Below, in pieces: positions 10,176 through 51,249 of a DNA stretch of 64,000 nucleotides. The notes below the pieces were generated by a model. The model saw only the letters and a program-made list of their open reading frames with translations, was not told the DNA's origin and made no database searches. This DNA comes from Malacoraja senta (taxonomy: Eukaryota), in contig CM075989.1 in NCBI GenBank assembly GCA_038087875.1, forward strand, positions 4,340,001 through 4,404,000, in the 5' to 3' direction. Numbering within the stretch: position 1 is the first letter of the stretch; every line of letters starts with the position of its first letter. Position numbers and translations under genes: made by a program.

Positions 10176-10495
10176 ACAGACGCAAAATGCTGGAGGAATT
10201 CAGCGGGTCAGGCAGCATCCGTGGAGGGAAATGGACAGATGACATTCTGGGTCGGGACCTTTCTTCAGACTGATCATCAGTCCCAACGTGAACTGTTGTC
10301 TGTCCATCTCCTTCCACAGATGATTCCTGACCATGCTGCCTTTCTTGTTTAAGAAGGAACTGCAGATGCTGGAAAATCGAAGGTAGACAAAAATGCTGGA
10401 GCAAAGGAAATAGGCAACGTTTCGGGTCGAGACCCTTCTTCAGCTACTTTTCTTGTTTGGTTAAGTTTCCAGCATCTGCAATTTCTTTTGTCTCA
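10176..10495. mobile_element. Penelope pLTR/hammerhead inverted element with a second copy nested at 10351-10442
   Basis: Arms in opposite orientation. The nested copy is flanked by a 16-bp direct repeat (10335-10350 / 10443-10458). Confidence 0.8.
10416..10443 (-). ncRNA. Minimal hammerhead ribozyme motif
   Basis: Minus strand reads CUGAAGA-aGGGUCucGACCC-GAAACGUU. Confidence 0.7.
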
Positions 10496-10729
10496 ACTTG
10501 TTAAAAAAGCTAAACCCTGGTGCTTAAACTTTTCCCTTTCCCAACGTGACGGACTTAGGTAATCTATAATATTCCCATTCTCCCACTAGGTAAAGGCTTC
10601 ATTTATGTATAATTTTATTCTAACCACAGTCCGCCAGAGTAAAGGAGAGGGTCGGGGTTTAAATGCCAAATTTTAAAATCAATTTTTAGGTAAAGTATCT
10701 GATTGGAACTTCAGCCCTGAGAGACAATG

Positions 10730-11245
10730 GTAGAAACAAGGAACTGCAGGTGCTAGTCAACAAAAAAAGGTACAACATCCTGGAGTAACACAGAGGGTCA
10801 GGTATTATCTCTGGAGAACATGGACAGGTAACGTTTCAGCTTGGGACCCTTCTTGTGACTGATTGTAGAGGTGGGGGGAAGAAAGATAAAAGAGAGGGGG
10901 GGCAGGACAGTCAGGCAGGTGATACAAGTAAGGAGGGGGTTTGATAGGCAGAAGGTTGGATAAAGGCCGGAATTGAAAAGACATAGGTGTGAGACAAAAG
11001 GATAGAGTTGCGAATTGTGAAGCTAGAGGAAGGAATGTACATAAGGGGAGAGTTAAGGTGGGGTCCAGGGGAGGGGGGAAAGTAAGGTGGGGTTATATGG
11101 GAGAAGAAGAGAGAGGGGGAGTGTTACGTAGATATAAAATTGGAGAATTCAATGTTTATAACAGCTACCCAAACTAAATATCAGTTGTTCCTCTTGTTTG
11201 TATGTGACCTCACTCTGGCAATGGAGGAGGCCCAGGACAGAAAGA
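10730..11245 (-). mobile_element. Penelope-like element 3' fragment
   Basis: pLTR, polypurine spacer and reverse GIY-YIG C-terminal sequence (CTCACTCTGGCAATGGAGGAGGCCCAGG). Confidence 0.8.
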
Positions 11246-11372
11246 CAATGCTAGCAAACTGGATTAAACTTATGTTACCCTGGATTCTCATTTATGTGCA
11301 CACTCAATTTTTAAGCATGGCCAAAATATTTTGACTAATTCTAAATTTCCCTCAGAGTAATTATCACAGAAT

Positions 11373-11687
11373 GGGCAGCACGGTGGCATAGCAGTAGAGC
11401 TACTGCCTTACAGCGCCAGAGTCCCAGGTTCAATCCTGACCACGGGTGCTTGCCTGTTTGTACGTTCTCCCTGTGACCCACGTGGGTTTTCTCTGAGATC
11501 TTTGGTTTCCTCCCACACTCCAGAGACGTACAGGTTTGTAGGTTAATTAGCTTGGTATAAAATGTATCATTGTCCCTCATGTGTGTAGGATAGTGTTAAT
11601 GCGCAGGGATCGCTGGTCGGTGTGGACTGGATGGGCCGAAGGGCCTGTTGCCGAGCTGTATCTCTAAACTAAACTAAACTAAACTAA
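11373..11687 (+). mobile_element. HE1-like SINE
   Basis: Full-length copy with (CTAAA)n tail. Confidence 0.9.
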
Positions 11688-12734
11688 GAACATTGGACCT
11701 TGTGAGATAACCAGTTCCAGAGGATAAAGTTTAAATCAATCATTGTTAAGCAAAAGTTATGGTCATAAGTGAAGATTCATAAAAAAGGGTTTATAGATTT
11801 TTGGCGAAATTTTACATCATTCAGTCTGTGAGTCCATATCAGTTCAATTAACAACCAGTGAGATTAACTACAAGGAACAAAGTGACTTGAATTTTAAGCT
11901 TGTCACTTAACAGCGATGCATATTTATCAACAGAGTGCGAAAAATAATAGTATCCTCCGATCAGAATGTCATCAGCAGGCAGCTGGAAACAATGGATGTC
12001 AGCGCTGAGACATAGATAATGTATGAATAAGTTCAAGTTCAGGTTCAAGTTTCAAGTTTGTGTTTCTTGTCACTTAACTAAGGTACAGTGAAATTTGAGT
12101 TACCATACAACCATACTAAATGAAAAGCAACGATACCATTTAACACAATTTAACATAGACATCCACCACAGTGGAATCCACATTCCTCACTGTGATGGAA
12201 GACAATAAAGTTTAGTCATCTTCCTCCTTTGTTCATCCTTGGTGGTTGGGGGCTTTGATCCCTCAGCAGTCGCCGCTGCCGACAGTCCGATGTCTGACGG
12301 CCTCACGTCGGGATGATGGAAAGTCCGGCGTCGGGACGGATTGGAGCACCAAAGTCGGCCTCTTCTTACCGGAGACCGTGGCTTCATGGTGTGAAAATCC
12401 ACGGTCGGTAAGTCCGCGATGGTAAGTCCGCGCCGCCCCCCGCAGCTTGAAGCTCCGAGCCAGGTCTCCAGGAAAGGCCGCACCAATCCAAGTTGTTAGG
12501 CCGCAAATGTGTATTCTGATGGAGATACTATGACAATACAACAACAATTATTGGAGTAACTCAACGGGTCAGGCGGCATCTGTGGAGGGAACGGACAGAT
12601 GAATGTTTGGGTCAGCACTTTTCTTCACACAGATATTACCACTGGTTTTATTCCAGCAAAGAATAAAAAAGAAACTCAGAAAAATGGAAAAGAGGGACTT
12701 TGATTCGAATTCATGATTCAAGTCAACAATGTTG

Positions 12735-12985
12735 CGGGGCGGCAAGGTGACGCAGCGGTAGAGTTGCTGCCTTACAGCGCCAGAGACCCAGGCTCGATCC
12801 TGAGTACGGGTGCTGTCTGTACGGAGTTTGTACGTTCTCTCCGTGACGTCTGGGTTTTCCCCGGGTCTTCTGGTTTCTTCACACACTCAAAAGACGTACA
12901 GCTATGTAGATTAATTTTGCTTTGATAAAAATTGTAAATTGTTCCTAATGTGTAGGATAGTGTTAGAGTACAGGGATTGCTGGTT
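12735..12985 (+). mobile_element. HE1-like SINE (3'-truncated by a Penelope fragment)
   Basis: Family consensus up to GGATTGCTGGTTGGC. Confidence 0.85.
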
Positions 12986-13932
12986 GGCAGACTGGGCAAC
13001 CATTTCCTTGAACACCTACACTCAGTCCGCCTTGGCCTACGCGATCTCCCAGTTGCCAAACATTTAAACTTTGACTCCTTTCCCATTTCTTTACTGACCT
13101 TTCTGTTTGTTAAGATTGTTAAGGGCTTGGACACGCTAGAGGCAGGAAACATGTTCCCGATGTTGGGGGAGTCCAGAACCAGGGGCCACAGTTTAAGAAT
13201 AAGGAGTAAGCCATTTAGAACAGAGACGAGGAAACACTTTTTCTCACAGAGAGTGGAGAGTCTGTGGCATTCTCTGCCTCAGAGAGCGGTGGAGGCAGGT
13301 TCTCTGGATGCTTTCAAGAGAGATCTAGATAGGGCTCTTAAAAATAGCGGAGTCAGGGGATATGGGAAGGCAGGAATGGGGTACTGATTGGGGATGATCA
13401 GCCATGATCACATTGAATGGCGGTGCTGGCTGGAAGGGCCGAATGGCCTACTCCTGCACCTATTGTCTATTGTCTATTATCCTGGGCCTCCTCCATTGTC
13501 AGTGAGGCGAAACACAAATTGGAGGAACAGCGCCTCATATTTCACTTGGGCAGCTTAAAACCCAGCGGCATGAATATTAATTTCTCTAATATCAATTAAC
13601 CCTTGCATTCCCTCTCTCTCCATCGTTCCCCACCCTAGTCCTCTTACTAATTTCACCATTTGTACCCCTTCATTATCACCTCGTCCCCAGCCAACATTGG
13701 ACCATTGTGGGCTCTATTGTTGGCTTTCCCGAGCCATCGGTGCAGACCGCTTTGCTCTGTACCTTCCCATACCTCTAGTTTCCCTCTCCCTGGCTCTCAG
13801 TCTGAAGAAAAGTCTTGACCCGAAATGCCACCTATTCCTTTTCTCCAGAGATGCTGCCTGACCCACTGAGTTACTCCAGCACTTTGTGTCTATCTTCGGT
13901 GTAAACTATCGTCTGCAGTTCCTTCCGACACA
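12986..13932 (+). mobile_element. Penelope-like element 3' part (GIY-YIG C-terminus plus pLTR) with CR1 fragment nested at ~13110-13478
   Basis: RLGNHFLEHLHSVR...DLPVAKHLN, then KHKLEEQRLIFHLGSLKPSGMNINFSN. pLTR with a degenerate hammerhead at 13802-13830. Confidence 0.88.
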
Positions 13933-14594
13933 AATAGAGGCTTTGCAGTTTTGTTGCCCTTCTCGCTAATGAGTAATGACAACCCCATTAGAAATAACTC
14001 AATGTTGGTCGCAAGAAAAACAGAACAATGAAGCCCAAAAAAAAAGCTTTTAAATCGTGAGGCCTGTGGCCATTATGAGAAGGCACTGAAACTCTCAATT
14101 GCCACTCTGTCTTTCCTTCAACACTTTCCCCACACTCTGCTCCTGGCTGGGACTATGTGTGTGACTATGTGTGTGACTGGTCTACACCATAAATAACCAG
14201 GCTTTTTGTTTGACCACTAATTTGCAGCAACTTCAGACACTGTCTCCTTCCCCCACATTGTACTTGTTCAATTCTGCTCATATGGCAGGACCAGGAATGG
14301 TGTGACCGCTCAGGCAGTGTTTGAAAAGTGTCCGACGTGTAAAGAAATTCTAACAGAATGATTTAACTGGAGAGTTGGCTTGAGAATATATCTTCTATTT
14401 ACTGTTAACTCCCCATTAGGCAGCAATAGGACCCAGAGACATTCAGCTCATTTCACAAAATACTCACACAACAGCAAAGACAATCTTTGTGAATCTAATA
14501 TAAATAATGGTTGGCGTTAAGTTTGTTATAAAGGGGAAATACTCATCTCAAATAGGGGTAGTTTCAGGGAACAAAAAGATTTGCAAGATTGGCC

Positions 14595-14920
14595 TGCACT
14601 GTGGCGCAGCGGTAGAGTTGCTGCCTGACAGCACCAGAGACCTGGGCTCGATCCTGCCTCTGGGTGCTGTCTGTACAGAGTTGGTACGTTCTACCCGTCA
14701 CCTGCGTAGGTTTTCTATGGGTTTTCTATGGGAGCTCCCGTTTCCTCCCACACTCCAAAGACGTACAGGTTTGTAGATTAATTGGCTTGGTAAAACTGTA
14801 AATTGTCCCTAGTGTGTGTAGGATAGTGTTAGTGTGCGGGGATCACCGGTCGGTGCGGACGCGGTGGACCGAAGGGCCTGTTTCCTTGCTGTTTCTCTAA
14901 ACTAAACTAAACTGAACTAG
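14595..14920 (+). mobile_element. HE1-like SINE
   Basis: Family consensus with (CTAAA)n tail. Confidence 0.9.
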
Positions 14921-14994
14921 ATGTAAATTATGTCGAAATTCTTCCAAGTACCAATGGAAATAAAACATCTGGGTTAAAGAAATTATCACAAAAG

Positions 14995-16678
14995 CAATTT
15001 TCCTTCTGCAATTGCTATACCTCTTTCAATCAATCCGGATATATCTCCCAGAAAATGTCTTTAAAAAAGTTGATTCTATTGTGACAAGTTTTATTTGGGA
15101 TTATAAGAATCACAGAATAAGCAAAAAACACCTATGTAAACCCAAGACCAAAGGAGGATTCGTTTTACCAAACTTTTTATTTTATTTTTGGGCAGTCAAT
15201 GTCAAAAATATGAATTTTTGGTTGGAAGATATGGATCAACAACCAGACTGGTTAAAGATGGAAAAGGAAGATTGTTTGCCTTTTGAAATTGGTCCGATCC
15301 TGTTAGCTCCTACAAAACTGAATTAAAAAATCTATAGTGAAAACCCTATAATATATAGTGGAATTCGAATTTGGAAACTATTAAAAAAGTCATTAAAATT
15401 GGATAATTTATCATTTTCTCTCCCCATTGCAAATAATCCTTCATTTAAACCCTCAGTGTTGGATAAAGGTTTTGTACAATGGAAAAATCATGGAATTAAA
15501 AAGATGCGACATCTTTATAGAAATGGTATTTTTCTTTCATTTCAGGAACTACAACAGAATTATGGATTACATTCAAATATTTTTTTTAGATACTTACAAC
15601 TTAAAGATTATGTTAAATCACATACACAAGAATACAGAACTAGAGAACCAGAGATTCTAGATGAATGTTTGAATAAACACCCTAATACAGATAAATTAAT
15701 ATCTTATATTTATAATATTCTTTTAGACAGTGAGACTCCGTCGACGGAATTATATAGATTAGCATGGGAAAAGGAATTAGCCCAACCTATAACAAAAGAT
15801 ATTTGGGATGAAAGTTTACAACATATACATCAATGTTCATTAAATGCCAGACACTCTTTAATACAATTTAAAGTACTACATAGATTGCATTATTCAAAAA
15901 CAAAATTAAATAGAATCTTTCCTAATATCTCTCCTATTTGTGATAAATGCCAATACTCATCGGCTAATTTAACCCATACTTTTGTAAATTGTATAAAAAT
16001 TAAAAATTATTGGATGGATATTTTTAAAATAATCTCTGTAGTTGTTAATACTCAACTGGATCCCGATTCTAAATTAATAATATTGGGCATGTCAGAACAA
16101 TACCTAAAACTTACAACAAACCAAAGAAATTTCCTTGACTACAGCATAATAATTGGGAAAAAATTAATATTAAAATTTTGGAAAAACCCTGCAACCCCCA
16201 CAATTAGGATGTGGATTATGGAGATGTCGGAGACATTATATTTGGAAAAAATTAGATATGTCTTAATTGACAAACCAGAATTATTTACTAAAATATGGTC
16301 TCCATTTATAGATTATCTGAAGGGGTAGACTGGTCCGGCACGGAGGCCTGACTGAAACCTGAACCCAGGACTGGATGAATAGTTACGTTTTCTGACCTAT
16401 GGACCTTTCTCCTAAGTTGTATTATTGATAGTTTATCTTACTTTATTAATTTCTTCTTTTTATTTCTTTATTTTTATTATCTATAAATATAAATAAATAA
16501 TTAGAGGCAACGTTAATATGTAACCGATAAAGGAGGACCCCAGCTACTTTGGTAACTGGGTATCCGGAACCCTGGATACTTAATATGTAATCGTTATACA
16601 AAGTTTGTAATGGGTTGGACTAAGATATGCAGATACCTTTAATAAAAAATTACAATTAAAAAAAATAATAATAATAAT
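14995..16678 (+). mobile_element. 5'-truncated L1 (LINE-1) with 14-bp TSD
   Basis: ORF2 C-terminus in 15012-15326 and 15399-16328 (FKVLHRLHYS, CDKC...HTFVNC), AATAAA and A/TAA tail. TSD AATTATCACAAAAG at 14981-14994 and 16679-16692. Confidence 0.93.
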
Positions 16679-16701
16679 AATTATCACAAAAGAGTTGCTA
16701 A

Positions 16702-16935
16702 AGGGCCTGTCCCACTTGGCCGTCATTTGCGCGTAATTAAGCGACATCATTTACGCGTCACGACGCACGACGCGCGCGTCGTGACATGCGCATGGTGAGC
16801 ATTATGTGCGCATGGAGCGTGGTGACATTGGTAGTGACGCGCGGTCGCGCGCGGCATCCCAGGATTTTGGGATGTACAAAATCTTCACGCGCCATTTACG
16901 TGACGCGCAAATGATGGCCAAGTGGGACAGGCCCT
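16702..16935. mobile_element. PIF/Harbinger-like MITE
   Basis: TIR AGGGCCTGTCCCACTTGGCC; near-palindromic; flanks TAA/TTA. Confidence 0.85.
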
Positions 16936-16964
16936 TTACTTACTTTATCACAGTCGGGGCAAAA

Positions 16965-17255
16965 GTAGTGGCACAGTGGCACAGCTAGTAGAACTGCTGC
17001 CCCTCAGCACCAGAGAACCACGTTCGATCCTGACCTCGGGTGCTGTCTGTGTGGAGTTGGCATGCTCTCCCAGTGACTGTCGATTTTCTCTGGGTGCTCC
17101 GATTTCCTCCCACATCCACAAGATGTGCGAGTTTGTAGGTCAATTGGCCTCTGTAAATTGCTCCTAGTGTTGGTGCAAGACTGGGATAACAGAGAACATG
17201 TGTAACAATGGTCAGGATGGATGGTTGACCAAAGAGCCTGTTTCCATGCTGAATA
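16965..17255 (+). mobile_element. HE1-like SINE (diverged)
   Basis: tRNA-like head and family body. Confidence 0.8.
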
Positions 17256-17308
17256 TTTCAATCACTCAATGAAACACAGAGTGAGAGCTGATACCCAGGT
17301 ATGGTACA

Positions 17309-17539
17309 TGTAGGAATGAACTGCATGCAGATGCTGGTTTAAACCGAAGATAGACACAAAATGCTGGAGTAGCTCAGCGGGACAGGCAGCATCTCTGGAG
17401 AGGCAGCATCTCTGGAGAGATGTTTTACGTTGAGACACTTCTTCAGACTGAAGGAAGGTCTCGACCCTAAACGTCACCCATTCCTTCGCTCCAGAGATGC
17501 TGCCTGTCCCGCTAAATTACTCCAGCATTTTGTGTGTAT
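17309..17539. mobile_element. Penelope pLTR/hammerhead inverted-dimer element
   Basis: Inverted arms; TSD CCCAGRTATGGTACA at 17294-17308 / 17540-17554. Confidence 0.85.
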
Positions 17540-17914
17540 CCCAGATATGGTACACACTGCAGATGGCCCTATTTTCATTAGGCCTTCCACTGTAACCTGC
17601 TCTTTCACAGAACCTGAAGCTGCAGAATTTGTCTCCATATAAAATGTATACAAACCTTCTTCACATTGAAATATAAATGAATTGGAAACACATTATATAC
17701 ACATTATGTGCTGTGTCTACTTTAAATGAGCACCAGTCATCCAGAAACCACAAAGTTCATTCCTGCAGGGCATAGAACGATAGTGGGACATCACTTTCTT
17801 GGCTTACTTCTCTTCTTTAATCCTTAAGACTTAAAAAATAATCTTAGCATAAAATAAGTTAGTCAATCACCACATCTTTCTTCCGATTCTCAAAAGATGA
17901 GGTGATAGAGACTA

Positions 17915-18170
17915 ACTTACTTTAAGGTGAGAGGGGAAAGATTTAATACGAACCAGAGGAATAACACAAAGGGTGGTGGGTATATGAAACGAGCTGCCGG
18001 AGGAGGTAGTTGAAGCAGATACTAAGGCACGTTTAAGAAACATTTAGACAGGTACATGGAAAGGAGGTTTAGAGGGATATGAACTAAACATAGGCAGATG
18101 GGACTAGTGTAAATGGGGCATGTTGTTCGGTGTGGGCAAGTTAGGCCAAAGTTTTCACGCTGTATGGCTA
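17915..18170 (+). mobile_element. CR1 3' fragment
   Basis: TTTAAGGTGAGAGGGGAAAGATTTAA...GGGCAAGTTAGGCC. Confidence 0.8.
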
Positions 18171-18285
18171 TAAGAAATGTGCCTTGCGCTGTGAACCTTT
18201 AGCTTTCAGCTGGACAAATCTCATGAAAATAATTTCAAGCAAATATCTACAGATCAAGTCAAGAGTGTTTAATTGCAACATGTTC

Positions 18286-18868
18286 AGGGGCTGTCCCACT
18301 TGGGCGACCTAATTGCCAAGTTTAGAAGAGTTTGAAAAAATGACATGTTGAAGACCTCCTTCGACTATGGAGAAGACCTCCTTCGACCTCCTTCGACTAT
18401 GTTGAAGACCAGCTTCGACTAGCTACGACTAGCTACGACTAACTTCGGGAAAATTGGACACCGAATAGTGGAAAGTGAAGACGACCTCCTTCGATCTCCT
18501 TCGACCTCCCTTCGACCTCCCTTCGACTATGATGAAGACTATCAACGACTATCTACGACTACCTTCGACTACCCTCGATTACCTACGACTAACGTGCCGA
18601 CCTACTACGACCTACTACGACTAAACCTACGAGTAAAAAAAGTATCGATTTTTTCCATGGCGACCTTTTTTTACTCGCGGGCATTTTTTAACATATTGAA
18701 AAAAACGCCGTGACCTAGCTGAGGCCCCGAGAACGCGGGGACCACTCTCGAGCATGAAGGAGAGTTACGAAGACCTCCTTTGACCTCGTGTCGACCATGC
18801 TGCGAGTATGAGTCGAGGGCAAACTCGCCAGAACTCACGGATTAGGTCGCCCAAGTGAGACAGGCCCT
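18286..18868. mobile_element. PIF/Harbinger-like MITE with CTACGA/CTTCGA repeats
   Basis: TIRs AGGGGCTGTCCCACTTGGGCGACCTAAT / ATTAGGTCGCCCAAGTGAGACAGGCCCT. Same family as 54689-55150. Confidence 0.85.
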
Positions 18869-18959
18869 TAACGACAACAGAACAATGACATTCAGACTTG
18901 CTGCAGCATTACGAGCCCTTAAACGCAATAACACCCAGATAATACTGTATAATAACGTG

Positions 18960-19950
18960 GAACAGTACAGCATGGGAACAGGCCCTTCAGCCCACAATGT
19001 CCGTGCTGAACATGATGCCAGTCTAAACTAATCTCCCCTGCAGGCAGGTAATCAATATCCCTGCATTCCCTGCATATCCATGTGCCTATTCCAAAAGCCT
19101 CTTGAAAACCACCATCAAATCTCCCTCCACCACTACCGCTGGCAACACATTCCAGACACACACCACTCTCTGCCTAGAAACTTTTACCCCTCCTATCTTA
19201 AAGCTATGCCCTCATGTCTTCGACATCTCCACCCCAGGAAAGTGTTCTGATCGTCTACTTTGTCTGTGCCGCTCATAATAGATGTCTCCCCTCAGACTTC
19301 CAATGCTCCAGGAAAAATAATCCAAGTTTGTCCAACCTCTCTTTACACCTATTAACCTCTAATCCAAGCAGCATTATGATAACGCCCCTCTGTACCCTTT
19401 CCAAAGCCTCCACATCCTTCCTGTAGGATGCACGCAGGAACTGTGTGCATCCAATACACAGAACTGCACACAATACACCAAATGTGGCCTGACCAATGTC
19501 CTATAAAGCTGCATCATAACTCCCTGAGTCCATGCCTCAACCGTGGCACTGCGCAGCATTAGTTCATGTTCATAAGTAAAGGAGCAGAATTTGTCCATTC
19601 AGCCCATCGAGTCTACTCTGCCATTCAATCATGGCTGATCTATCTTTCCCTCTCAACCTCATTCTCATGCCTGCTCCCCATTACCTTTGACACCCTTACT
19701 GATCAAGAGCACGTCAATCTTCATTTTATAAATACCCAATGTCTTTACCTCCAGAGCCGTCTGTGGCAATGAATTCCACAGATTCACCACCCTCGAACTA
19801 AAGACATTCCTCCTCATCTCCTTTCTAAAGGCATATCCTTTCATTCTGAGGCTGTGCCCTCTGGTCCTAAACTCTCCCACTAGTGGAAACATCCTCTCCA
19901 CAGCCACTCTATCCAGGCCTATCACTGTTTGGTAAGTTTCAATGAGCCCC
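18960..19950 (-). mobile_element. Two adjacent CR1 3' fragments
   Basis: ORFs 19273-19473 and 19665-19925 (YRKDVEALERVQR; RTRGHSLR...VVNLWNSLP). Confidence 0.85.
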
Positions 19951-20150
19951 CCCCCCCCTCATCCAACTAAACTCCAGGCATCTTTCTAAACCTTACATGC
20001 GCTTCCATTTTCCTATTAATGAAAGTTACAACCTCTTTGGTCATTCAAGGTGCCCTAACCTTGCCATCCCTATCCTTCCTTCTTACTGGAACTTACTGGT
20101 CTTAACTTCAGATCAGCTGGACTTTAAAAGTCTCCCACGTGTCAGATGTG

Positions 20151-20371
20151 TAGGAAGGAACTGCAGATGCTGGTTTAAACTGAAGATAGACACAAAAAAC
20201 TGGAGTAACTCAGCGGAACAGGCAGCATCTCTGGGGAAACGGAACAGGTGGCGTTTCAGGTTGAGACCCTTCTTCAGGTCTGATGAAGAGTCTCAAACTG
20301 AAACGTCGCCTATTCCTTTTCTCCAGAGATGCTGCCTGTCCTGCTGAGTTACTCCAGCTTTTTGTGTCTAT
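20151..20371. mobile_element. Penelope pLTR/hammerhead inverted-dimer element
   Basis: Inverted arms meeting at ~20278; 17-bp imperfect TSD at 20134-20150 / 20372-20388. Confidence 0.85.
20276..20311 (+). ncRNA. Minimal hammerhead ribozyme motif with canonical CUGAUGA core
   Basis: AGGU-CUGAUGA-agAGUcucaaACU-GAAACGUC-GCCU; 4-bp stem I possible. Confidence 0.62.
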
Positions 20372-20411
20372 CCCTCATATCAGATGTGGATGTACCCATG
20401 GCGGATTGAAT

Positions 20412-20580
20412 GCCTTGAAGAGCTAGATAGAGCTCTTAAAGATAGCGGAGTCAGGGGATATGGGGAGAAGGCAGGAACGGGGTACTGATTGGGGATGATC
20501 AGCCATGATCACATTGAATGGCGGTGCTGGCTCGAAGGGCCAAATGGCCTACTCCTGCACCTATTGTCTATTGTCTATTG
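20412..20580 (+). mobile_element. CR1 extreme 3' fragment
   Basis: 3' stem-loop and (TTGTCTA)n tail. Confidence 0.85.
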
Positions 20581-20899
20581 CCTTCCGCCAGGGTCCAGAC
20601 ATCCTAATTTATAAGTATTTCAAAACAAATCAAAAATACAATCAACTAATAACCATAATGCAAGATAACCCTAATAGTGCACAATCCAAGTCCGCAGTGC
20701 AACGTAAGACGCAGTCCAAAGATGATCACAGTTTCTGAAGTTGATGTTTTGTAGTCTTCAGGGCATGGTGGCTATTGAGAAGAAGCTGTTTTAGATGCTG
20801 GTAGTCACAGTTTTCAGGCTCCTGCACCTTCTTTCTGATGATAGTAGCGAGATGAGAGTGTGGCCAGTTTGATATGGGTCTTTTCTGAGGCATGTTCAT

Positions 20900-21212
20900 T
20901 TTCATAAGATTTAGGAGCAATATTGGGCCATTTGGCCCATCAAGTCTACTCCGCCATTCTATGGTTCCCACTCAACCACATTTACCTGCCTTCTCCCTAT
21001 CAATCTCTACTTAAAAATATCCATTGACTTGGCATCCAAAGCCTTCCGTGGCAATGAATTCCACAGATTCACCACCCTACAACTGAAGACATTCTTCCTC
21101 ATCTCCTTTCTAAAGGTACATCCTTTTATTCTGAGGCTATGGCCTCTGGTTAAAGACTCTTCCACTGGTGGAAACATCCTCTCCACATCCACTCTATCCA
21201 GGCCTTTCACTA
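20900..21212 (-). mobile_element. CR1 3' fragment nested in a Rex1-type remnant (~20700-21555)
   Basis: ORF 21007-21210; flanks resemble the Rex1 copy at 48642-49610. Confidence 0.8.
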
Positions 21213-21846
21213 TAAAACCTGTCGATTGTGGGGAGGTCAGTACCTCTGATGGACCAGGCAGCGTCTACCACTCTGTTGTTTCCTGGGCCAGGCTGTGACG
21301 TAACCAGTGAGTATGCTCTCTATCGTACACCTGTAGAAGGTTGCTGACATACTGAATCTCCGCAATGGAGGCATTGGTGAGCTTTCCTCGTGATTGCTTT
21401 GGTGTACTGGGCCCAGGACAGATCTTCTAAGATATCCATGCCCAGGAATTGGAGGCCGCTGCCTCTCTCTACTGCTGTCCCATTGATGAAGACAGGTTCG
21501 TTCGGAGCAAGGTTATTGTTCTGGCAGCATTCAATTAGATTTTCAATCTCCCTCCTTTAATTTAAAATATTTAAATTATTAACTGAACATAATACCAAGC
21601 ATTCCATTTCCAGGTTTTCTATATTGGTAATACTTGGCAGGGATAACTGCAGCACAATTTTATGTAACTACATGTTTGTAATGAGTGCAATTCAAAACAA
21701 ATTTGTCCTGAGCTATCCTGAATGAGGTGTTTTATAAACACAATCATGCCTTTGTCTTACTCGCCACATAATATGCATACAATATTTTTTTCATATTCAC
21801 TGAATGAATTGGAAAAGCATTATATGCACATTAAGTCCCAGTACCT

Positions 21847-22053
21847 TAGATAGACAGAAAAAGCTGGAGTAATTCAGCAGGTCAGACAGCATCTCTGGAA
21901 AAAAGGAATAGGTGATGTTTCAGATTTCAAAAGGGTCTTGACCCGAAACGTCACCCATTCCTTTTCTCCGGAAATGCTGCTTGCCCACTGAGTTACTCCA
22001 GTTTTGTGTGTCTATCTTCGATTTAAACCAGCATCTGCAGTTCCTTCCTACAC
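21847..22053. mobile_element. Penelope pLTR inverted-dimer element
   Basis: Inverted arms; TSD at 21833-21846 / 22054-22067; empty paralogous site at ~17706-17718. Confidence 0.85.
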
Positions 22054-22124
22054 AAGTGCCTGTACCTACTTTAAGTGAGCACCAGTCATGCAAAACTGCA
22101 AAGTGCATTCTGGCAGGTTATACT

Positions 22125-22441
22125 TTAGACTTTATTTCGACTTTAGAGATGCAGCATGGAAACAGGCCCTTTGGCCCACCATGTTCGTGCCGACCAGCGA
22201 TCAAACCATACACTAGCTCTATCCTACAGACTCGAGACAATTTACAATTTACAGAAGCCAATTAATGTACAAACCTGTACGTATTTGGAGTGTGGTAGGA
22301 ACCTGGAGCACCCAGAGGAAACCCACAGGATCACAGGGAAAACGTGCAAACTCCGTCCAGACAGCAACTATCGTTAGGATCAAACCCGGGTCTCTGGTGC
22401 TGTCAGGCAGCAACTCTACCACTGCGCCACCATGCCGCCCC
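22125..22441 (-). mobile_element. HE1-like SINE
   Basis: Reverse family consensus. Confidence 0.88.
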
Positions 22442-22539
22442 TATAGAACAATGGTGGGACATCTTTGGTCTTCTCCTATGCTCAATACACATGTGTGCAG
22501 ATGCATGCAGTTGGGTTAAAAAGCATGTATTCACACACA

Positions 22540-22925
22540 CAAATATCTGATGGAAATCATTGAGCCCCCATTGACACCATCTACACCACACTGCCTCGGG
22601 AAAGTAGCCAAAATAAACAAAGACCGTTCCCGTGCCGGTCATCCCTTCTTCTCCCCGCTTCTCAAGCAGAAGATACAAAATCGTGAAACCAGACTCAGGA
22701 ACAACTTCTTCCCCTCTGTGATCAGGCTCCTGAACGATCCTTCCAAAAGTGAGGGTATTGTCCGAATCACCTTTACCTCATTACAAACATTGGGCTCTGC
22801 AACTGATGCACAGCAATGCTGAGAACTATATTCTGCATTCTGTATCCTTGCCTTCAGTCTACCTATCGTACTTGAGTTTGGTTTGATTGCAGTTATGTTT
22901 AGTATTATCTGACCCGATGAGGTGC
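22540..22925 (+). mobile_element. Rex1/Babar LINE 3' fragment
   Basis: CLGKVAKINKD...GHPFFSPL...RLRNNFFPSVIRLLN. Confidence 0.8.
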
Positions 22926-24019
22926 AAAACATTCGCTCTGCCTTGCCACCCGCGGCAAAAATTAACCTGAACCTAAGGGAGAGGAATCCTAAAATGACAC
23001 AAAGTGCTGGAGTAGCTCAGCAGGTTGGGCAGCATCTCTGGACAACGTTTGGGTCAGGACCCTTCTTCAGACTGATTGTCAGAGAAGAGAAGAAATCCCG
23101 AAGAGGGGAGAGACGGGACAAAGTGTGGCAGGTAATAGGTGGATGTTGGCGAGGTGGGTTATTGATAGGCAGATGGTTAGAACACAGGCCAGAGGTTAAA
23201 GGAATTCTGGCAGATGTACTGTGGGCACAGAGACCAACTTACCACCTCAACCACTACACAAAATGAGCAAACCTGCACACCATACAGCAGGAATCCGAAC
23301 TGAAGCCTTTTGCTGAGTTAGCTCCTATGTTTAATGAAACAGGGTGCATGTGATTCTGTGCAACAGAATTTGAAGATAAAGAATTAACTAGTAGAAATAA
23401 TAATGGAGATTGAACTAGTCCCACATGGGTGTTGAAAGGATTCGCAAGCATAATGGTTAAAGGATGGTATGATTCAAATGCTAGAGTTTTTAAAAATATT
23501 TGTAAAAACTGATTAGAGACCTTCTCGACCCAAAACGTTGCCTATTTCCTTCGCTCCATAGATGCTGCCTCACCCATTGAGTTTCCCCAGCATTTTTGTC
23601 TACCTTCGATTTTCCAGCATCTGCAGTTCCTTCTTAAACAGAGACCTGCATCATGATAGTTCATCATAGCTTGCCTAGTAAATGGGGAGCTAAAACGTAT
23701 ACTTGCCTTAGGAAGGGGAAAGTGAAATAAAAGCCAGTTCACAGTTCAGGAGAGCTTTCCACTAGATCTGACTGTCAAATAGAGGTGGACCTGACTGATG
23801 TGACCATGAAATGAGCACACAAAGTGCAGGAGGAACTCAGCAGATCAGGCAGCATCTGGGGAGGGAATGAATGGATAGGCGATGTTTCGGGTTAGGACCA
23901 TTCTTCAAGAGTCAATATTCTGGACTCTTGAACAAGAGTCAAGAATGTTTAATTTTTATAGGCAGCAACAACAGAACAATGAACAGACAGGATTGATTGG
24001 ACAAACGACAATATTGGTT

Positions 24020-24915: not shown

Positions 24916-24916
24916 A

Positions 24917-26781: not shown

Positions 26782-26939
26782 ATCAGATTTGCTGTGAAAA
26801 CAAAGTGCTTTTTTATTGTCTTGAAAAGCAACTGTGGACAATAGCTCTTATACAGACGATATAAAAACAGCATTCATGCAGTCGCTCATTGTAAAGTGCT
26901 CCAGTGTGTTTCAACAGCGTTGGAATTCGATTAGTAATA

Positions 26940-34742: not shown

Positions 34743-35360
34743 TTTTAGACTTTAGATTTTAGAGATGCAGCGTAGCAGCAGGCGCTTCACCCCACCCATC
34801 ATTCACCCCGTACACTAAAGGACCTGTCCCACTGTACCAGGTAATTCAAGAGTTCTCCCGAGTTCTCCCCTGATTCGAGCTTGTGTAATGTACGTAGCGG
34901 GTAAAAAGTTTTTTAAAAAATTCATAACAAGTATTTTTTTACTCGTGGACATTTTCCACAGTGTTGAAAAAACGTCACGAGTTTACCGGATTTCCTGAGT
35001 ACCTACCGTTACTCGTACGAGCTGCTACGAGACATCCACGAGCTCCTACGTACCCGCTACGTACATTACACGAGCTCGAATCAGGGGAGAACTCGGGAGA
35101 ACTCGTGAATTACCTCGTACAGTGGGACGGGCCTTAAACCCTATCTTACACGCACTAGGGACAATTTACAATTTTACCAAAGCCAATTAACCTACAAACC
35201 TGTACATCTTTGGAGTGTGGGAGGAAACCGGAGCACCCGGAGAAAACCGACGCGGTCACGGGGAGAACGTACCAATTCTGTACAGACAGCACCCGTAGTC
35301 AGGATCGGACCCGGGTCTCTAACACTGTGAGGCATCAACTCTACTGCTGCGCCACCGTGC
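34743..35360 (-). mobile_element. HE1-like SINE interrupted by a MITE
   Basis: SINE halves at 34743-34818 and 35136-35360. Confidence 0.88.
34819..35135. mobile_element. PIF/Harbinger-like MITE (palindromic, CTCG/CGAG family)
   Basis: TIR AGGACCTGTCCCACTGTAC / GTACAGTGGGACGGGCCT; long internal inverted arms. Confidence 0.87.
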
Positions 35361-35850: not shown

Positions 35851-35859
35851 ATTACTGTC

Positions 35860-37317: not shown

Positions 37318-37546
37318 TAACTCCATTAGATATATCGCTTTAGATCTCTAAGCGAGATCAAAAAGGCAGTCAGCACCATCAAGAACCCACGCTACTCTGG
37401 CCAAGCTCTCACTTCACTCCTACTATCAGAAAGAAGGTGAAAGAGTCTGAAAACCATGACCTCCAGCTTCAGGAACAGCTTCTTCTCTAAGATCACCAGG
37501 CTCTTGAACATTACATAGACCAACTAAACTACTCACTAAAAACTGT

Positions 37547-37663
37547 GTCGGAAGGAACTGCAGATGCTGGTTTAAACCGAATATAGACACATAAAGCTAG
37601 AGTAACTCTCTAGAGATCGTGTCTGTCCCGCTGAGTTACTCCAGCTTTTTGTGTCTATCTTTG
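37547..37663. mobile_element. Short Penelope pLTR inverted element in a Rex1-type 3' remnant
   Basis: Perfect 13-bp TSD CACTAAAAACTGT at 37534-37546 / 37664-37676. Confidence 0.85.
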
Positions 37664-37787
37664 CACTAAAAACTGTCTTGGTTGCACAAGAGACATTTGG
37701 CTTGTTTTGTACTAATATTGCTTCATTAATTTATTCTTTTTTGTTGTTTATTGGTGTATTTTGTGTGTTCTGTGTTTACAGACCTGT

Positions 37788-37987
37788 NNNNNNNNNNNNN
37801 NNNNNNNNNNNNNNNNNNNNNNNNNNNNNNNNNNNNNNNNNNNNNNNNNNNNNNNNNNNNNNNNNNNNNNNNNNNNNNNNNNNNNNNNNNNNNNNNNNNN
37901 NNNNNNNNNNNNNNNNNNNNNNNNNNNNNNNNNNNNNNNNNNNNNNNNNNNNNNNNNNNNNNNNNNNNNNNNNNNNNNNNNNNNNNN
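37788..37987. other. Assembly gap (200 N)
   Basis: Run of N. Confidence 1.
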
Positions 37988-40272: not shown

Positions 40273-40454
40273 AGCTAGGTTCATTGAAAAGTAATTAGGA
40301 GTGGAAAATAATATATCCATTTAGTAGCTCCGAGCTACAAGATTCAATGACTCCATATTCATATCAACGTAATTATATAATGAATAAAACATAATAATAA
40401 GTGACAGAGACCTCTCGAGGAGTATTATCCAACTAAACTGAACAGCAAGCCATG

Positions 40455-40690
40455 AACACTGACTTCTCCAATTACAGGTAGTCCTTGCTTTCTCGCTCCT
40501 TCCTCTTCCATTCCCAGCTATCCCACAGCCTACTATCTCCGCCTCTTCCTTTCTTTTTCCTGACCCCTCCCCCCCCCCCCTCACCCCCACGATATCAGTC
40601 TGAAGAAGGGTCTCGACCCGAAACGTCGCTTATTCCTTCGCTCCATAGATGCTGCCTCACCCGCTGAGTTTCTCCAGCTTTTTTGACTAC
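40455..40690 (+). mobile_element. Penelope 3' end plus pLTR with 12-bp TSD
   Basis: TSD CAGCAAGCCATG at 40443-40454 / 40691-40702. Confidence 0.88.
40600..40627 (+). ncRNA. Minimal hammerhead ribozyme motif
   Basis: (AGT)CTGAAGA AGGGTC TC GACCC GAAA CGTC(GCT); 3-bp stem I possible. Confidence 0.72.
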
Positions 40691-40819
40691 CAGCAAGCCA
40701 TGTAAGGAGAGTTCGGATAAAAATGACTTGAAGTTTGACCAATAAAGTAAATCAAAGAACATCTTGAAGGAAGAAAGTGCGATGGAAAGTTTCTTAGCAC
40801 CAATTTGACTGAGAGAACA

Positions 40820-41714: not shown

Positions 41715-42572
41715 GGTATACACTGATGGCACTGAAGTAGAAATGGTTGATACTTTCAAGTTGTTAGGAATAAATATCACCAGCAACTTGGCCTGGACCA
41801 GCCACATCGAAGCAATGGCCAAGAAGGCACACCGACACCTCTACTTCCTTAGAAGGCTTAGAAAGTTCAGCATGTCCCCAACAACCCTCACCAACCTCGA
41901 CCGATGTGCCATAGAATGCACTTTATTAGATGCATCACACTATGGTTTTGGAACAGCTCCATCCAAGACCACACAGAATTGCAGAGAGTTCTGGACACAG
42001 CCCAGTCCATCATACAAACCAACCTCCTTTCCATTGACTCCATCTACACTTCACGCTGCCTCAGAAAGGCCACCAGCATAATCAAGGACCAGTTTCACCC
42101 CAGTCACTCCCTCTTCTCCCTTCTCCCATCAGGCAGGAGGTATAGAGTTTGAAACCGCATACCTCAAGATTCAGGGACAGTTTCATCCCAGCTGTAATCA
42201 GGCAACTGAACTATCCTCTCACCAACCAGAGAACGGTTCTGACCTCCAATCTACCTCATTGCGCACCTTCAAACTATCTTTAATCAGATTTTACTGGACT
42301 TTTTCTTGCACAAAACGTTATACACCTTATCCTGTATCTGTACACTGTGGATGCTTTCAGTTTCAGTTTCAGCTTCAGTTTAGTTTATTGTCACGTATAT
42401 CGAGGTACAGTTTTTGTTGCGTGCTATCCAGTCAGCAGAAAGTCAATACATGATTACAATTGAGCCATTTCGGCTTGATTATAATCTTGTGTAGTCTTTT
42501 CCTTGCATGGACAGCAAGCTTTTCACTGTACCTTGTATCTTGGTACACGTGACAATCATAAACTAAACTAAA
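41715..42572 (+). mobile_element. Rex1/Babar LINE 3' fragment
   Basis: VDTFKLLGINITSNLAWTSH...KKAHRHLYFLRRLRKF; SLFSLLPSGRRYR. Confidence 0.88.
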
Positions 42573-42584
42573 CTTCAGCTCATT

Positions 42585-42804
42585 TAAGAAGGAACTGCAG
42601 ATGCTGGAAATTCGAAGGTAGATAAAAATGCAGGAGAAACTCAGCAGGTGCGGCAGCATCTATGGAGCGAAGGAAATAGGCAACGTTTCGGGCCAAAACT
42701 CTTCTGTATGTCTGAAGAAGGGTTTCGGTCCGAAACGTTGCCTATTTCCTTCGCTCCATAGATGCTGCCGCACCCGCTGAGTTTCTCCAGCATTTTTGTC
42801 TACC
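42585..42804. mobile_element. Penelope pLTR/hammerhead inverted-dimer element (motif 42712-42739, GUU site)
   Basis: ~95-bp near-perfect inverted arms; 17-bp TSD at 42568-42584 / 42805-42821. Confidence 0.88.
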
Positions 42805-43399
42805 CTAAACTTCAGTTCGTTATTTTTAAACTGATCTCCTATATTGGGAATGAAAGAAAGATCTCGCCTCTTTCTCTCTTCTTATTCTATCTTTTGCCTG
42901 TCCACTGTTCTATCAAAATTCTAATTGCAAAAGCAACTTAAATTTGTTTTGCCCTTAAACATAGTAAAACTTCCTTGGGATGTTATGACGAAAAAAATGA
43001 TGTTAAGCCATATGAGATATGAAGGCAGATGTCTAAATCTTGGTTAAAGGGATAGAACGGAGAGGAGGGGAGAGTAGCACAGAGATACTTGGAGAAGAAA
43101 GTTCAGAGCTAATTTAGTGGCGATGCTCTCCAGTCTACAATTAAAGGGACATAAGTACCTTGCAGAGTTTATTGGTCAAGAGATCACAAGAGTTAACCAG
43201 GGACAACATAAAAAGGGAATCTGAAAACAAAGGAAGACATTTTAAAACAATCTATAATTAAAAGCCAACACAGGAACTACAAGCGGATAGAACCAAGAAT
43301 GTAAACTAGAAAGTAGACTGCAGAATTGGATGACCCCACGTTTAGAGAGTCTGTGTGAACTAATAACATGGCTGAGAAGTCCCTCAGCAGATAAGCAAA

Positions 43400-43712: not shown

Positions 43713-43713
43713 G

Positions 43714-44060: not shown

Positions 44061-44369
44061 AAATGCTGCCTGACCTGCTGAGTTGGTCCAGCGCTGCCTT
44101 TTGCTCAAGGATGTAATTTCACCTGCCTTTAACGGTCCCCCATCTATTCTAGGCTGAGCTTTACAACAATCCTACATTGTAGTTCCAATCATGTTCTCCG
44201 TAAATAGACATTGTTAGGAGCACGGGATGAAAGAATTATACCTTCCCCTCCCAGGTTTCACATTCCCAGCAACCAGGTCATTGGAAACAGTTGCTTGGTT
44301 ACCAATTGGGGAACTAAGCAAAAAGAGTCCAACAAGAGGAAGTGTGAAATAGAATCTGAAAAATGGTGG

Positions 44370-44852
44370 AGACAGACACAAAGTGCTGGAGTAACTCAGC
44401 AGGTCAGGCAGCTTCTCTGGAGAAAAAGAATAGGTGATGTTTCGGGTCGAGACCCTACTTCAGACTTATTAATTATAATGTCTATAGTAAAGATGAAGGA
44501 ATGGGAGCCAGGAAAACAGGTCATCAAAGAAAAAAAGGGCATGTCTTAATTAAGAAGGGTTTTCGCCCGAAAAGTTGCCTTTTTCCTTCGCTCCACAGAT
44601 GCTGCCTCACCCGCTGAGTTTCTCCAGCATTTTTGCCTACCTTAGATTTTCCAGCATCTTCAGTTCCTTCTTAAAGAGAAAAAGGGCATGTGAGGTGTCT
44701 TGGACATATGTTGGGAGGGATCGGACCAGGGGGGATAGGATGGAGTCTCATCGTCTATTCTTTTTCTCCAGAGATGCTGCCTGACCCTCTGAGTTACTCC
44801 AGCATTTTGTGTCTATCTTCTGTAAACCAGCATCTGCAGTTCCTTCCTACAC
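44370..44852. mobile_element. Cluster of Penelope pLTR copies; the copy at 44545-44672 has a 19-bp TSD
   Basis: TSD AAAGARAAAAAGGGCATGT at 44526-44544 / 44673-44691. Confidence 0.82.
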
Positions 44853-45019
44853 AGAAAATAATGGACTTCACTCAGCAACCAAAAGACAAGGTGAGGGCAA
44901 CTTTAGCCACTTGCAGCTTAAAGCTGAAACAGTGTGATTCTGAGTTGTTAGCTATAAACAATGACTTTATATAACGATGAATGATAATACAGTGTTTTAT
45001 GATATGCGTTTGAATTAAT

Positions 45020-48641: not shown

Positions 48642-49610
48642 AAGTTCAAGTTCAAGTGAGTTTATTGTCCCTGATAGGACAATGAAATTCTTGCTTTGCT
48701 TCAGCACAACAGAACATAGTAGGCATTGACTACAAAACAGATCACTGTGTCCATATACCATTCTATAAATATATACACACATGAATCAATATACTGATAA
48801 AGTGCAAATAACAGTTAATTGGCTAATAAAGTTGCAGTCTTCAGGCTCCTGTAGCTTCTACCTGAAGGTAGTAGGGAGATGAGTGTGTGGCCAGGATGGT
48901 GTGGGTCCTTGATGATACTGCCAGCCTTTTTGAGGCAGCGACTGTGATAGATCCCCTCGATGGAAGGGAGGTCAGAGCCGATGATGGACTGGGCAGTGTT
49001 TGCTACTTTTTGTCGTCTTTTCCTCTCCAGGGCGCTCAAGTTGCCGAACCAAGCCACGGTGCAACAGGTCAGCATGCTCTCTACTGTGCACCTGTAGAAG
49101 TTAGAGAGAGTCCTCCTTGACAAACCGACTCTCCGTAATCTTCTCAGGAAGTAGAGGCGCTGATGTGCTTTCTTAATAATGGCATCAGTGTTCTCGGACC
49201 AGGAAAGATCTTCAGAGATATGCACGCCCAGGAATTTGAAGCTCTTGACCCTTTCAACCATCGACCCATTGATATAAACGGGACTGTGGGTCCCCATCCC
49301 ACTCCTTCCAAAGTCCACAATCAGTTCCTTGGTTTTGCTGGTGTTGAGGGCCAGGTTATTGTGCTGGCACCATATGGACAGTTGCTCGATCTCTCTTCTA
49401 TACTCTGACTCATCCCCATCAGTGATACGTCCCACAACAGTGGTGTCGTCAGCGAACTTGATGATAGAGTTCGCACTATGTCCGGCTACGCAGTCATGAG
49501 TATAGAGTGAGTACAGCAGGGGGCTGAGCACGCAGCCTTGAGGTGCTCCCGTGCTGATTGTTATCGAGTCTGACACATTTCCACCAGTACGAACAGACTG
49601 TGGTCTGTGG
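48642..49610 (-). mobile_element. Rex1/Babar LINE RT fragment inserted in a Penelope pLTR dimer (48600-49786)
   Basis: ORF 48815-49576: TGAPQGCVLSPLLYSLYTHDC, IIKFADDTTVVG, KKAHQRLYFLRRL. Confidence 0.93.
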
Positions 49611-49786
49611 TCTGAGCATCTCTGGAGAAAAGAAATAGATGATGTTTCGGGTCGAGACCCTTCTTCATTTCAACCCGAAACGTCACCTATTCCTTTTCTC
49701 CAGACATGGTGCCTGACCTGCTGAGTTACTCCAGCATTTAGTGTCTATCTTCGGTGTGAACCAGCATCTGCAGTTCCTTCCTACAC

Positions 49787-50200
49787 AAGAGTCAAGAGTG
49801 TTTTATTGTCCCATGTCCTGAAATGGAACAATAAAATTCTTACTTGCAGCAGCACAACAGGTTTGGAAACACAGTACTCAATAAATAATATACTAAACAA
49901 ACAAAAAAAAGCTCAAAAATTAAAAATATATATATATATAGTGCAAAAAAAAAGCCCAACGTCTCTCATGCAACTTAGGCAGCTTGTGGTTCGGAGTTTA
50001 GTTGAAGTGTGTAGTGTTTAATACTCAGATGGTTGTTGGGAAAAAGCAGTTCCTGATCCTGGACGTTATTGATTTCAGACTCCCACACCTTCTTTTCGAT
50101 GGCAGGAGTGAAATGAGAGCATGGCCAGTGTGGTGCTGGTTCTTGATGCTTCTGGCTGCTTTTTTGAGATAGTGCCGCATATAGATCCCTTTGTAATGAG
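49787..50200 (-). mobile_element. Rex1/Babar 3' fragment
   Basis: LKKAARSIKNQHHTGHALISLLPS...RIRNCFFPTTI. Confidence 0.8.
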
Positions 50201-50504
50201 AAGGTCCGTACGCGTGATGGACCATATTATGAAAAGGTAAAGTGAAGGCTCGGACCTTGTGTGAATATGTGAAGGTCAACATGACTATTTTGTTCAAATG
50301 CAAAAAGACAGCAACAGATATTTGCAATGAAGTGTTTTAAGTTGCTTGTGGAATTTAATTCTGGCTTATTTACCATATGGGAATATGTAATTTATGTTCA
50401 TGATAGGTAAAATCTAAACTCATCCAAATGGCAAAAGATATTACAAATCCTAGCCAAGCCACCTTTTCAGAGGGTACATGATATGGAACATCTTATTATA
50501 GATT

Positions 50505-50854
50505 CAGACCCATTCTGAAGAAGGGTCCCATCCGGAAATGTCACCTATCCATGTTACCCAGAGATGCTGCTGATCCGTTGAGTTACTCCAGCACTTTGTG
50601 TCTTTTTTTATAAACCATCATCTGCAGCTCCTTGTTTCTACATCTTCTTCTAAAGGTGTAGGAAGGAAGTGCAGATGCTGGTTTACACCGAAGATAGACA
50701 CAAAATGGTGGAACAACTCAGCGGGACAGTTCCTATCTCTGGACGGGAATGGGTGACTTCTTCTGAAGAAGGATCTCGACCCGAAACGTCACCCATTCCT
50801 TCTATCCAGAGATGCTGCCTGTCCTGCTGAGTTACTCCAGCTTTTTGTGCCTAC
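50505..50854. mobile_element. Penelope pLTR plus inverted-dimer element (50657-50854; hammerhead motif 50763-50790)
   Basis: TSD CTTMTTCTAAAGG at 50644-50656 / 50855-50867. Confidence 0.85.
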
Positions 50855-51249
50855 CTTATTCTAAAGGATTGAGAGCTTCTATGGCATGTATGATTCAAGG
50901 GTAGAGAAAGGCACATAATCATACACACATGGTTTGTGAACTCCCCATTTTCCATCACTTTCCTCAGAATCAACAGTGAAGTCACTTCTGCTTCATACTT
51001 CCATTGTTTCTTTAGACCAGTCATCAAGATTGGAAATTACAGCCTTAAAATCCTTCCACTAAGCAGCCAGTGGATTTATTTCTTCAACCCTGCATTTTCC
51101 TCAGGAGAAGTATTCAGCGTTTTTTGTCATCGAGCTACTAGAGAAACCTTCTAACCATCTGGTCATCTGTCTGACCAGCAGGTAAATCTTGTTGCAGTTA
51201 TCTTTACCTCCTTGGACTTTTATTGATGTGTTTATTTAGAGGGGGGGGG

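Follow-up and report, generated by a model that had tools for sequence, protein, structure and literature searches.

Short Penelope-like insertions of Malacoraja senta lie between direct repeats that are almost certainly target-site duplications and may record priming at two nicks

Results

A short repeat family with the features of a Penelope-like element

The stretch of DNA analysed here (64,000 nucleotides of Malacoraja senta, assembly GCA_038087875.1, contig CM075989.1, positions 4,340,001 to 4,404,000 of the forward strand; hereafter the window, whose first letter is position 1 of all the coordinates below) holds a very abundant repeat family, with 33 loci in 64 kb. Its units of 95–135 nt are, judging from their sequence features, the ends (pseudo-long terminal repeats, pLTRs) of an endonuclease-positive (EN+) Penelope-like element (PLE). 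About half of the loci are single arms, 14 are inverted pairs, and the insertions sit in unique sequence, not in microsatellites. An earlier reading made from the letters alone (hereafter the sequence-only reading) had listed eleven pairs of direct repeats of 12–19 bp around individual units, and had taken them as target-site duplications (TSDs) left by a staggered cut. All eleven pairs are present where claimed, with 0–3 mismatches each (14 of 166 bases in total), the three labelled as perfect (at 25261, 37534 and 40443) are so, and each pair encloses one or two arms of this one family.

Six of the 40 arms extend upstream into a 3' untranslated region (UTR), some of them further into an open reading frame (ORF) end, and at 25273–26081, 40453–40691 and 12986–13934 the ORF stop, the UTR and the pLTR are found in that order. 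In an older, longer copy, 86 stop-free codons on the minus strand (24642–24899) are the putative remnant of a GIY-YIG endonuclease domain: the nearest ESM clusters are GIY-YIG (feature similarity 0.94, 186 of 256 features in common), and the remnant is 57% identical over 86 amino acids to a zebra shark protein, which has itself a sub-cutoff Pfam match to GIY-YIG (E = 0.0019). A Pfam search of the three remnants themselves gave no match, and a pairwise comparison of two ORF remnants gave no alignment. No reverse transcriptase core was seen in the copies of the window, although no search aimed at it was made. The homologue P0001 starts with motifs that by eye resemble those of a reverse transcriptase (RT), and Pfam reports no RT family for it. 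Moreover, the cysteine cluster that the 57%-identical shark homologue bears at the position of the RT–endonuclease linker is degenerate and seems nearer to Neptune than to Poseidon, and the family possibly belongs to the Neptune clade; the CX2-5CxxC linker was not found in the ORF remnants of the window.

Of the features known for EN+ PLEs, the following were found: the GIY-YIG domain, a pLTR that follows the ORF and the 3' UTR, with 5' truncation and inverted copies, an optional tail, a minimal hammerhead and TSDs of variable length. A non-LTR retrozyme was considered and rejected, as there is no tandem array of the unit and the copies are solo or head-to-head, and so was a miniature inverted-repeat transposable element (MITE), as the TSDs of 8–19 bp are not of fixed length, the arms are made unequal by the tail and half of the loci are single arms. 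Viral contigs, metagenome contigs and prokaryote genomes, scanned by pattern for more copies, yielded none.

Direct repeats abut the element ends in excess over chance

Forty BLAST clusters were obtained with five window-derived queries; seven of them, whose match was confined to the CR1-like part of a single query, were dropped, and 33 PLE loci were scored after nested copies had been split and interrupted copies merged. Repeats were scored with +1 for a match and −2 for a mismatch, with a threshold of at least 8, and a repeat was allowed to overlap the element by as many as 6 bases or to be separated from it by as many as 10. The element ends were fixed by alignment to other copies, and the flanks had already been seen beforehand, hence the scoring was not fully blind. 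An abutting direct repeat was observed at 15 of the 33 loci, compared to 9 of 1056 swapped left/right flank pairs, one of these nine being a trivial self-overlap (binomial p ~1e-22). The same scorer, in the same window, found a flanking repeat at 0 of 26 copies of a family that we take to be SINE-like, at 0 of 6 3' ends of a presumably CR1-like family, and at 14 of 600 random intervals. The comparison with shuffled flanks that the sequence-only reading had proposed, done here within the window, gives a frequency of flanking repeats far above the control. In addition, the recovery of repeats drops with the apparent age of the subfamily, from 6/6 in A, the youngest, to 7/12 in B, 2/8 in C and 0/7 in the most degraded copies; within A and B, a repeat was found at 7/9 inverted and 6/9 solo loci.

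The scorer recovers all eleven pairs of the sequence-only reading and four new ones, and over the 15 loci the lengths range from 8 to 19 bp, with a median of 13. This range is wider than the 12–19 bp claimed earlier, pairs of 8, 8, 9 and 11 bp having been overlooked; the former range is a detection bias, and the regularity once ascribed to these repeats is not borne out by such a spread. The upper lengths depend on tolerating mismatches, because in four long pairs (10335, 20133, 33959 and 42568) the longest perfect run is just 8–11 bp. The mismatch rate of the TSDs, 8.4%, is not above the arm-to-arm divergence of the inverted pairs (9–25%), and the target sites are slightly AT-rich (60.6% vs 56.2%). 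Three pairs with a score of 7 (33173/33342, 50488/50640 and 61540/61680) were left uncounted.

Further evidence came from an insertion into the family itself. The 809-bp insert at 25273–26081 interrupts an older copy of the same PLE family, and when the host sequences on its two sides are each aligned to four intact copies, they overlap by 9, 10, 11 and 5 reference bases; thus, in the family the stretch duplicated at 25261 is present a single time, and its second copy dates from the insertion. At 10346, where the host itself is deleted, this test was uninformative. The insert had been counted as one short unit, and it is indeed a TSD-bounded insertion, but it actually consists of a PLE of about 310 bp, including the ORF end, and of a later CR1-like insertion of about 500 bp.

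To look at the sites in relatives, the contigs of four public runs were aligned to 10200–30100. Run X20 differs by 0–1 letters from the window on unique pieces, and runs X1, X2 and X23 by about 4–6%; the alignments are dominated by paralogues, and the evidence comes from the 32 pieces listed of about 860,000. In X23, a relative diverged by about 4%, the alignment of record 25 (497 nt) begins, among the pieces listed, exactly at 10443, where the right repeat starts and which corresponds to position 108 of the record; the first 107 letters do not run on into the element. A filled allele at 10335 would be expected to carry the alignment into the element, and the record is indirectly consistent with an empty site, without being a proof of one. 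The comparison of empty sites suggested by the sequence-only reading has in this way given one indirect sign, at 10335, while the other six scored loci in 10200–30100 are uninformative either way.

The repeats are, in our opinion, almost certainly TSDs. The staggered cut claimed for them agrees with repeats that abut both element ends, exceed the controls and are recovered less often as subfamilies age. The companion claim, that the units were inserted short and are not decayed full elements, also held up, as the TSDs adjoin both ends of short units and their recovery tracks subfamily age.

Ends, tails and junctions of the insertions

The front of the pLTR matches the criteria of a minimal type I hammerhead, as at 25953–25980 on the plus strand, where the predicted cut falls after 25980. 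Among the 30 of 40 arms that cover the motif, the stem II pairs are kept in 23–29, and this fits a predicted ribozyme motif at the 5' edge of the pLTR. The minimal type I hammerheads described for PLE pLTRs in PMC4209133 are alike in the core, in the one unpaired base before stem II, in the G-C at 10.1–11.1 and in the palindromic 15.2–16.2, and are mostly single motifs from truncated PLEs, as here; by comparison, the predicted motifs of the window have a stem I pairing that is weak by eye and an intact core in 11 of the 30 arms. A Rfam search of the window returned no hammerhead match, and four pieces of the pLTR folded, as RNA, no better than their shuffles (z −1.0 to −1.7).

The 5' ends are clustered, with 26 of the 40 arms beginning between −6 and +12 from the first hammerhead core base, 8 further in (one being an internal-deletion artefact) and 6 extending upstream. 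The reference copies used for this count began at −5, and longer 5' extensions were checked separately against three UTR types. Hammerhead cleavage was rejected as the cause of the clustering, as 26 of the 40 arms start upstream of the predicted cut (about +28).

The 3' ends fall into two classes 35–43 nt apart (22 arms tailed, 15 tail-less and 3 other), between which lies the optional tail of 35–40 nt; on the basis of the alignment of arm ends, it occupies, for example, 26045–26081 on the plus strand. In each of two runs, the tailed end 20146/7 is where more than 1000 contigs stop, and the flanks there are weakly AT-rich. One tailed arm, and no more than one, is present in 10/10 inverted pairs scored by script, with a probability of about 0.001 if the ends were chosen independently, and in 13/14 pairs if four judged by eye are included. 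The exception, 24015–26146, is a large older inverted structure with both arms reaching into the ORF, and carries a full and a partial tail. At the tailed junctions (n = 14), the TSD overlaps the element end by 27 bases summed (0–5 each), with a null mean of 11–14 and p between 0.0005 and 0.007, and the longer overlaps follow the subfamily's own end sequence. The overlap at tail ends and the one-tail rule were derived from a sample of 14 junctions and 14 pairs, all of one window. The centres of the inverted pairs vary between pairs, often with bases missing.

The loci with repeats

Solo pLTRs of subfamily A with a tail were found at three places. On the minus strand, the copy at 10346–10443, with a 31-bp internal deletion, lies inside an older inverted PLE pair, between TSDs of 16 bp with 2 mismatches (10335–10350/10443–10458). 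On the plus strand, a copy newly added here is flanked by a perfect 8-bp TSD (23515–23522/23640–23647), and another, whose 5' junction has 7 extra bases, by a TSD of 19 bp with 1 mismatch (44526–44691), between the arms of the older inverted pair 44367–44854. The inverted subfamily-A pair at 42568–42821 has a tail on the left arm alone and a TSD of either 11 bp, perfect, or 17 bp with 2 mismatches. For three of the six insertions of subfamily A, the site is within an older PLE copy or between its arms (10178–10494, 24015–26146 and 44367–44854), which may reflect a preference for their own sequence or mere repeat density.

The left arm alone is tailed also in the head-to-head pair at 17294–17554 (TSD of 15 bp, 1 mismatch), in the pairs at 20133–20388 (17–18 bp, 3 mismatches, overlapping the tail end by 4 bases) and 50644–50867 (13 bp, 1 mismatch), and in the pair without a centre at 37534–37676 (perfect, 13 bp), about 110 bases to the right of which there is a 200-base assembly gap (37788–37987). 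The right arm alone is tailed in the pair at 21833–22067 (14 bp, 2 mismatches) and in the rearranged pair at 33959–34142 (18 bp, 2 mismatches), whose left arm ends internally. Two 5'-truncated copies on the plus strand have perfect 12-bp TSDs: the one at 25261–26093 (ORF end, 3' UTR, pLTR and tail) lies within an older pLTR and received the later CR1-like insertion at about 25366–25866, and the tail-less one at 40443–40702 consists of the last ORF codons, the 3' UTR and the pLTR. The remaining new pairs, all on the minus strand, belong to an older copy of subfamily C that includes an ORF end and a 3' UTR at 10723–11254 (10723–10733/11244–11254, 11 bp, 1 mismatch), to a solo subfamily-B pLTR with a tail at 59098–59239 (59098/59232, a perfect 8-bp TSD with 5 of its bases overlapping the tail end), and to a solo subfamily-C pLTR at 56932–57080, where the perfect A-rich 9-bp repeat (56932–56940/57072–57080) is the weakest of the added cases. 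The uncounted pair 50488–50500/50640–50652 is a possible 13-bp TSD of an older copy (50511–50644), into whose right repeat the younger insertion at 50655 went.

Neighbouring repeats

Sub-threshold Rfam matches to microRNA precursors fall on inverted pLTR pairs at 42643–42778, 37583–37658 and 21873–21994 because the arms are inverted. Such pairs are a likely source of false microRNA annotations, and annotators should be warned that these 200–230-bp hairpins are neither MITEs nor microRNA precursors. A MITE-like element with terminal inverted repeats of about 50 nt (88% alike) lies at 24121–24454, in the 3' UTR of an older PLE copy, and has a relative at 34812–35128. Among the pieces listed, an X20 contig aligns from 24468, with 1565 letters elsewhere, and on this alignment the element may be absent in the X20 sample. 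Two opposite-orientation copies of a further repeat with 10-bp periodicity (18353–18872 and 54685–55150) are 96% alike over 326 nt and have ends like those of the MITE-like element. CR1-like 3' fragments are nested in PLE copies at 13112–13477 and 25366–25866; many paralogous contigs in all four runs link 25365 to 25866 and, since they join these positions, the PLE family is without the second insert. Degenerate tandem arrays were observed at 3495–3817 (period 36/72, 9 units) and 1743–1886 (period 71, 2 units).

Discussion

The repeats with their excess over the controls, the two discrete 3' ends, the clustered 5' ends and the one-sided tail are direct observations, which the following chain of events would connect. 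The GIY-YIG endonuclease of the element would nick the two strands 8–19 bp apart, offering two 3' ends (overhangs) to its RT. One nicked end would pair with 1–5 bases at the end of the RNA tail and prime a cDNA, which would usually halt after 95–135 nt near the 5' edge of the pLTR, perhaps the 5' end of the RNA, so that the unit would be short at birth. In solo copies this cDNA would be joined to the other nicked end; in inverted pairs, the second nick would serve as a primer too, with the second start site as its origin, and a head-to-head joining of both cDNAs would follow. The fill-in of the overhangs would then duplicate the target. The mechanism leans on an in vitro reaction in which, according to the experiments of PMC11167929, both strands are cut and extended by the protein of an Anolis PLE, with two start sites that delimit the tail. 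To the whole chain, TSD, nicks, priming and joining, we assign a probability of about 0.7, two-nick priming being its least certain link. The one-sided tail and the tail-end overlap suggest that both nicks prime reverse transcription, aided by microhomology; the specific proposal that the mini-insertions record PLE integration, with both nicks priming at two start sites on the same pLTR and the tail-end primer set by 1–5 paired bases, is tentative, and we would give it slightly less than even odds.

Several points weigh against this chain. No repeat with a score of at least 8 was found at 18 of the 33 loci, 5 of the 12 subfamily-B loci included, and the sign of an empty site at 10335 is a partial alignment, not a letter-by-letter sequence. 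At the tail-less junctions (n = 7), the summed overlap of 7 is at the null level (p 0.3–0.5), which gives priming at this end no support. The arms of the inverted pair 42583–42805 have 3 non-consensus variants in common (non-partner mean 0.4), and in seven other pairs 0–4 common variants were found against a mean of 1.1, a weak signal that is clear in one pair only. Finally, the initiation at a site without homology to the cut DNA, described in PMC11167929, fits poorly with the pairing step at the tail end.

The main rival takes the repeats as TSDs and explains the inverted arm by a fold-back: one nick would prime, the cDNA would snap back at a short palindrome before the hammerhead and copy itself (or an antisense RNA would prime itself), and the product would be end-joined to the second nick. 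Self-priming has already been proposed in the Discussion of PMC3846280, most of the inverted junctions of the window lie at a near-palindrome around the first hammerhead core bases, the tail-less ends are without excess overlap, and the variants shared by the arms of 42583–42805 are equally expected from one RNA. On the other hand, the second arm stops where solo tail-less copies end (40453–40691, with its perfect TSD), which matches the second start site found in vitro (PMC11167929) and for which a fold-back offers no reason, and the centres of the pairs differ, often with bases lost. We consider a fold-back unlikely, though well short of negligible. Much less probable is the capture of cDNA at pre-existing staggered breaks during repair, without an endonuclease of the element: it would suit TSDs of variable length and target sites that are merely slightly AT-rich, but not the SINE-like and CR1-like copies of the window without such repeats (0/32), nor the TSD at 6/6 copies of the youngest subfamily, nor the GIY-YIG domain encoded by the family.

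The view of the repeats as matches by chance, or as duplications of the host that precede the insertion, and of the short units as decayed long elements hardly deserves credence and is already largely refuted. The loci without a repeat, the internal deletions in some copies (10346, 37544) and the choice of the first cases after they had been seen speak for it; opposed to it are the p of ~1e-22 against permuted flanks, the single copy of the 25261 stretch in the host family, and repeats that adjoin both element ends.

The TSDs themselves are expected for EN+ PLEs, and the finding is real, statistically strong and mostly ordinary. The premise of the sequence-only reading, that PLEs lack consistent TSDs, was wrong, as variable-length TSDs are in print, also around solo and inverted pLTRs (PMC3846280, PMC8557442, PMC2377424). 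The passages of these papers that concern integration describe TSDs of variable length at PLE integration sites, with a tail often at one end only and TSDs not discernible where the elements target microsatellites (PMC8557442); TSDs of 8, 9 and 10 bp, TSDs around solo pLTRs, TSD-less copies and one empty allele (PMC3846280); and Penelope copies flanked by TSDs (PMC2377424). Moreover, PMC9977147 treats PLE TSDs as established and reports very short PLE insertions, with a median of 128 bp; the relevant passages of PMC8969392, PMC5753468, PMC6765202 and PMC3681739 add nothing on PLE TSDs. A literature search whose scope did not extend to most subscription papers, to the older primary papers or to supplements found, among the papers listed, none that deals with TSD lengths of this family, with PLE twin priming or with microhomology of PLE primers. 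What the window adds to the known picture is a TSD range with greater lengths, a strict rule of one tail per pair and the overlap at the tail end.

In the twin priming of L1, a second nick primes cDNA and leaves an inverted segment inside the TSD. The pairs studied here are alike in the priming proposed at the second nick and in the inverted segment within the TSD; however, the two segments of L1 copy different parts of the RNA, whereas both arms here copy the same 95 nt, so that the template would have been read twice or two RNAs used.

Among published systems, Pen2, Pen2a and Pen3a of Adineta vaga, as presented in PMC3846280, are similar in their head-to-head inverted pLTRs, one-arm tail, junction palindrome, TSDs around inverted and solo pLTRs and some TSD-less copies. 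They differ in TSD length (8, 9 and 10 bp, vs 8–19 bp with a median of 13 here), in that most insertions of the window are without any ORF, and in the inversion, which that work attributes to self-priming. The Anolis Poseidon PLE studied in vitro (PAc, PMC11167929) shares the two RT start sites bounding a tail of 30–40 nt and the cutting and extension of both strands; its template was uncut at the hammerhead, and likewise 26 of 40 arms here read through the predicted cut to the front of the motif. PAc initiates without homology to the cut DNA, whereas the tail junctions here overlap by 0–5 bases, it is a Poseidon element, whereas the shark homologue of the family has a cysteine linker nearer to Neptune, and the main text on PAc gives no TSD lengths. 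Metazoan non-LTR retrozymes (in the parts of PMC7229834 and bioRxiv 10.64898/2026.07.22.740005 on their structure) are likewise short, non-coding, hammerhead-bearing and related to PLE pLTRs, with TSDs longer than 4 bp when present; however, they are head-to-tail tandem arrays, while the copies here are solo or head-to-head, and in six arms the sequence runs on into the 3' UTR or the ORF of the PLE.

PMC8557442 and PMC11167929 both regard the formation of the inverted ends and the one-sided tail of PLEs as an open question. The junctions of the present family are readable because it inserts into unique sequence rather than microsatellites and, given also its high abundance, a genome-wide junction count could test two-nick priming against a fold-back, as well as primer microhomology, with existing assemblies. 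If priming at both nicks were true, a single step would account for TSD, inverted repeat and one-sided tail of PLEs alike, the self-priming model would be replaced, and the homology-free initiation observed in vitro would have to be qualified.

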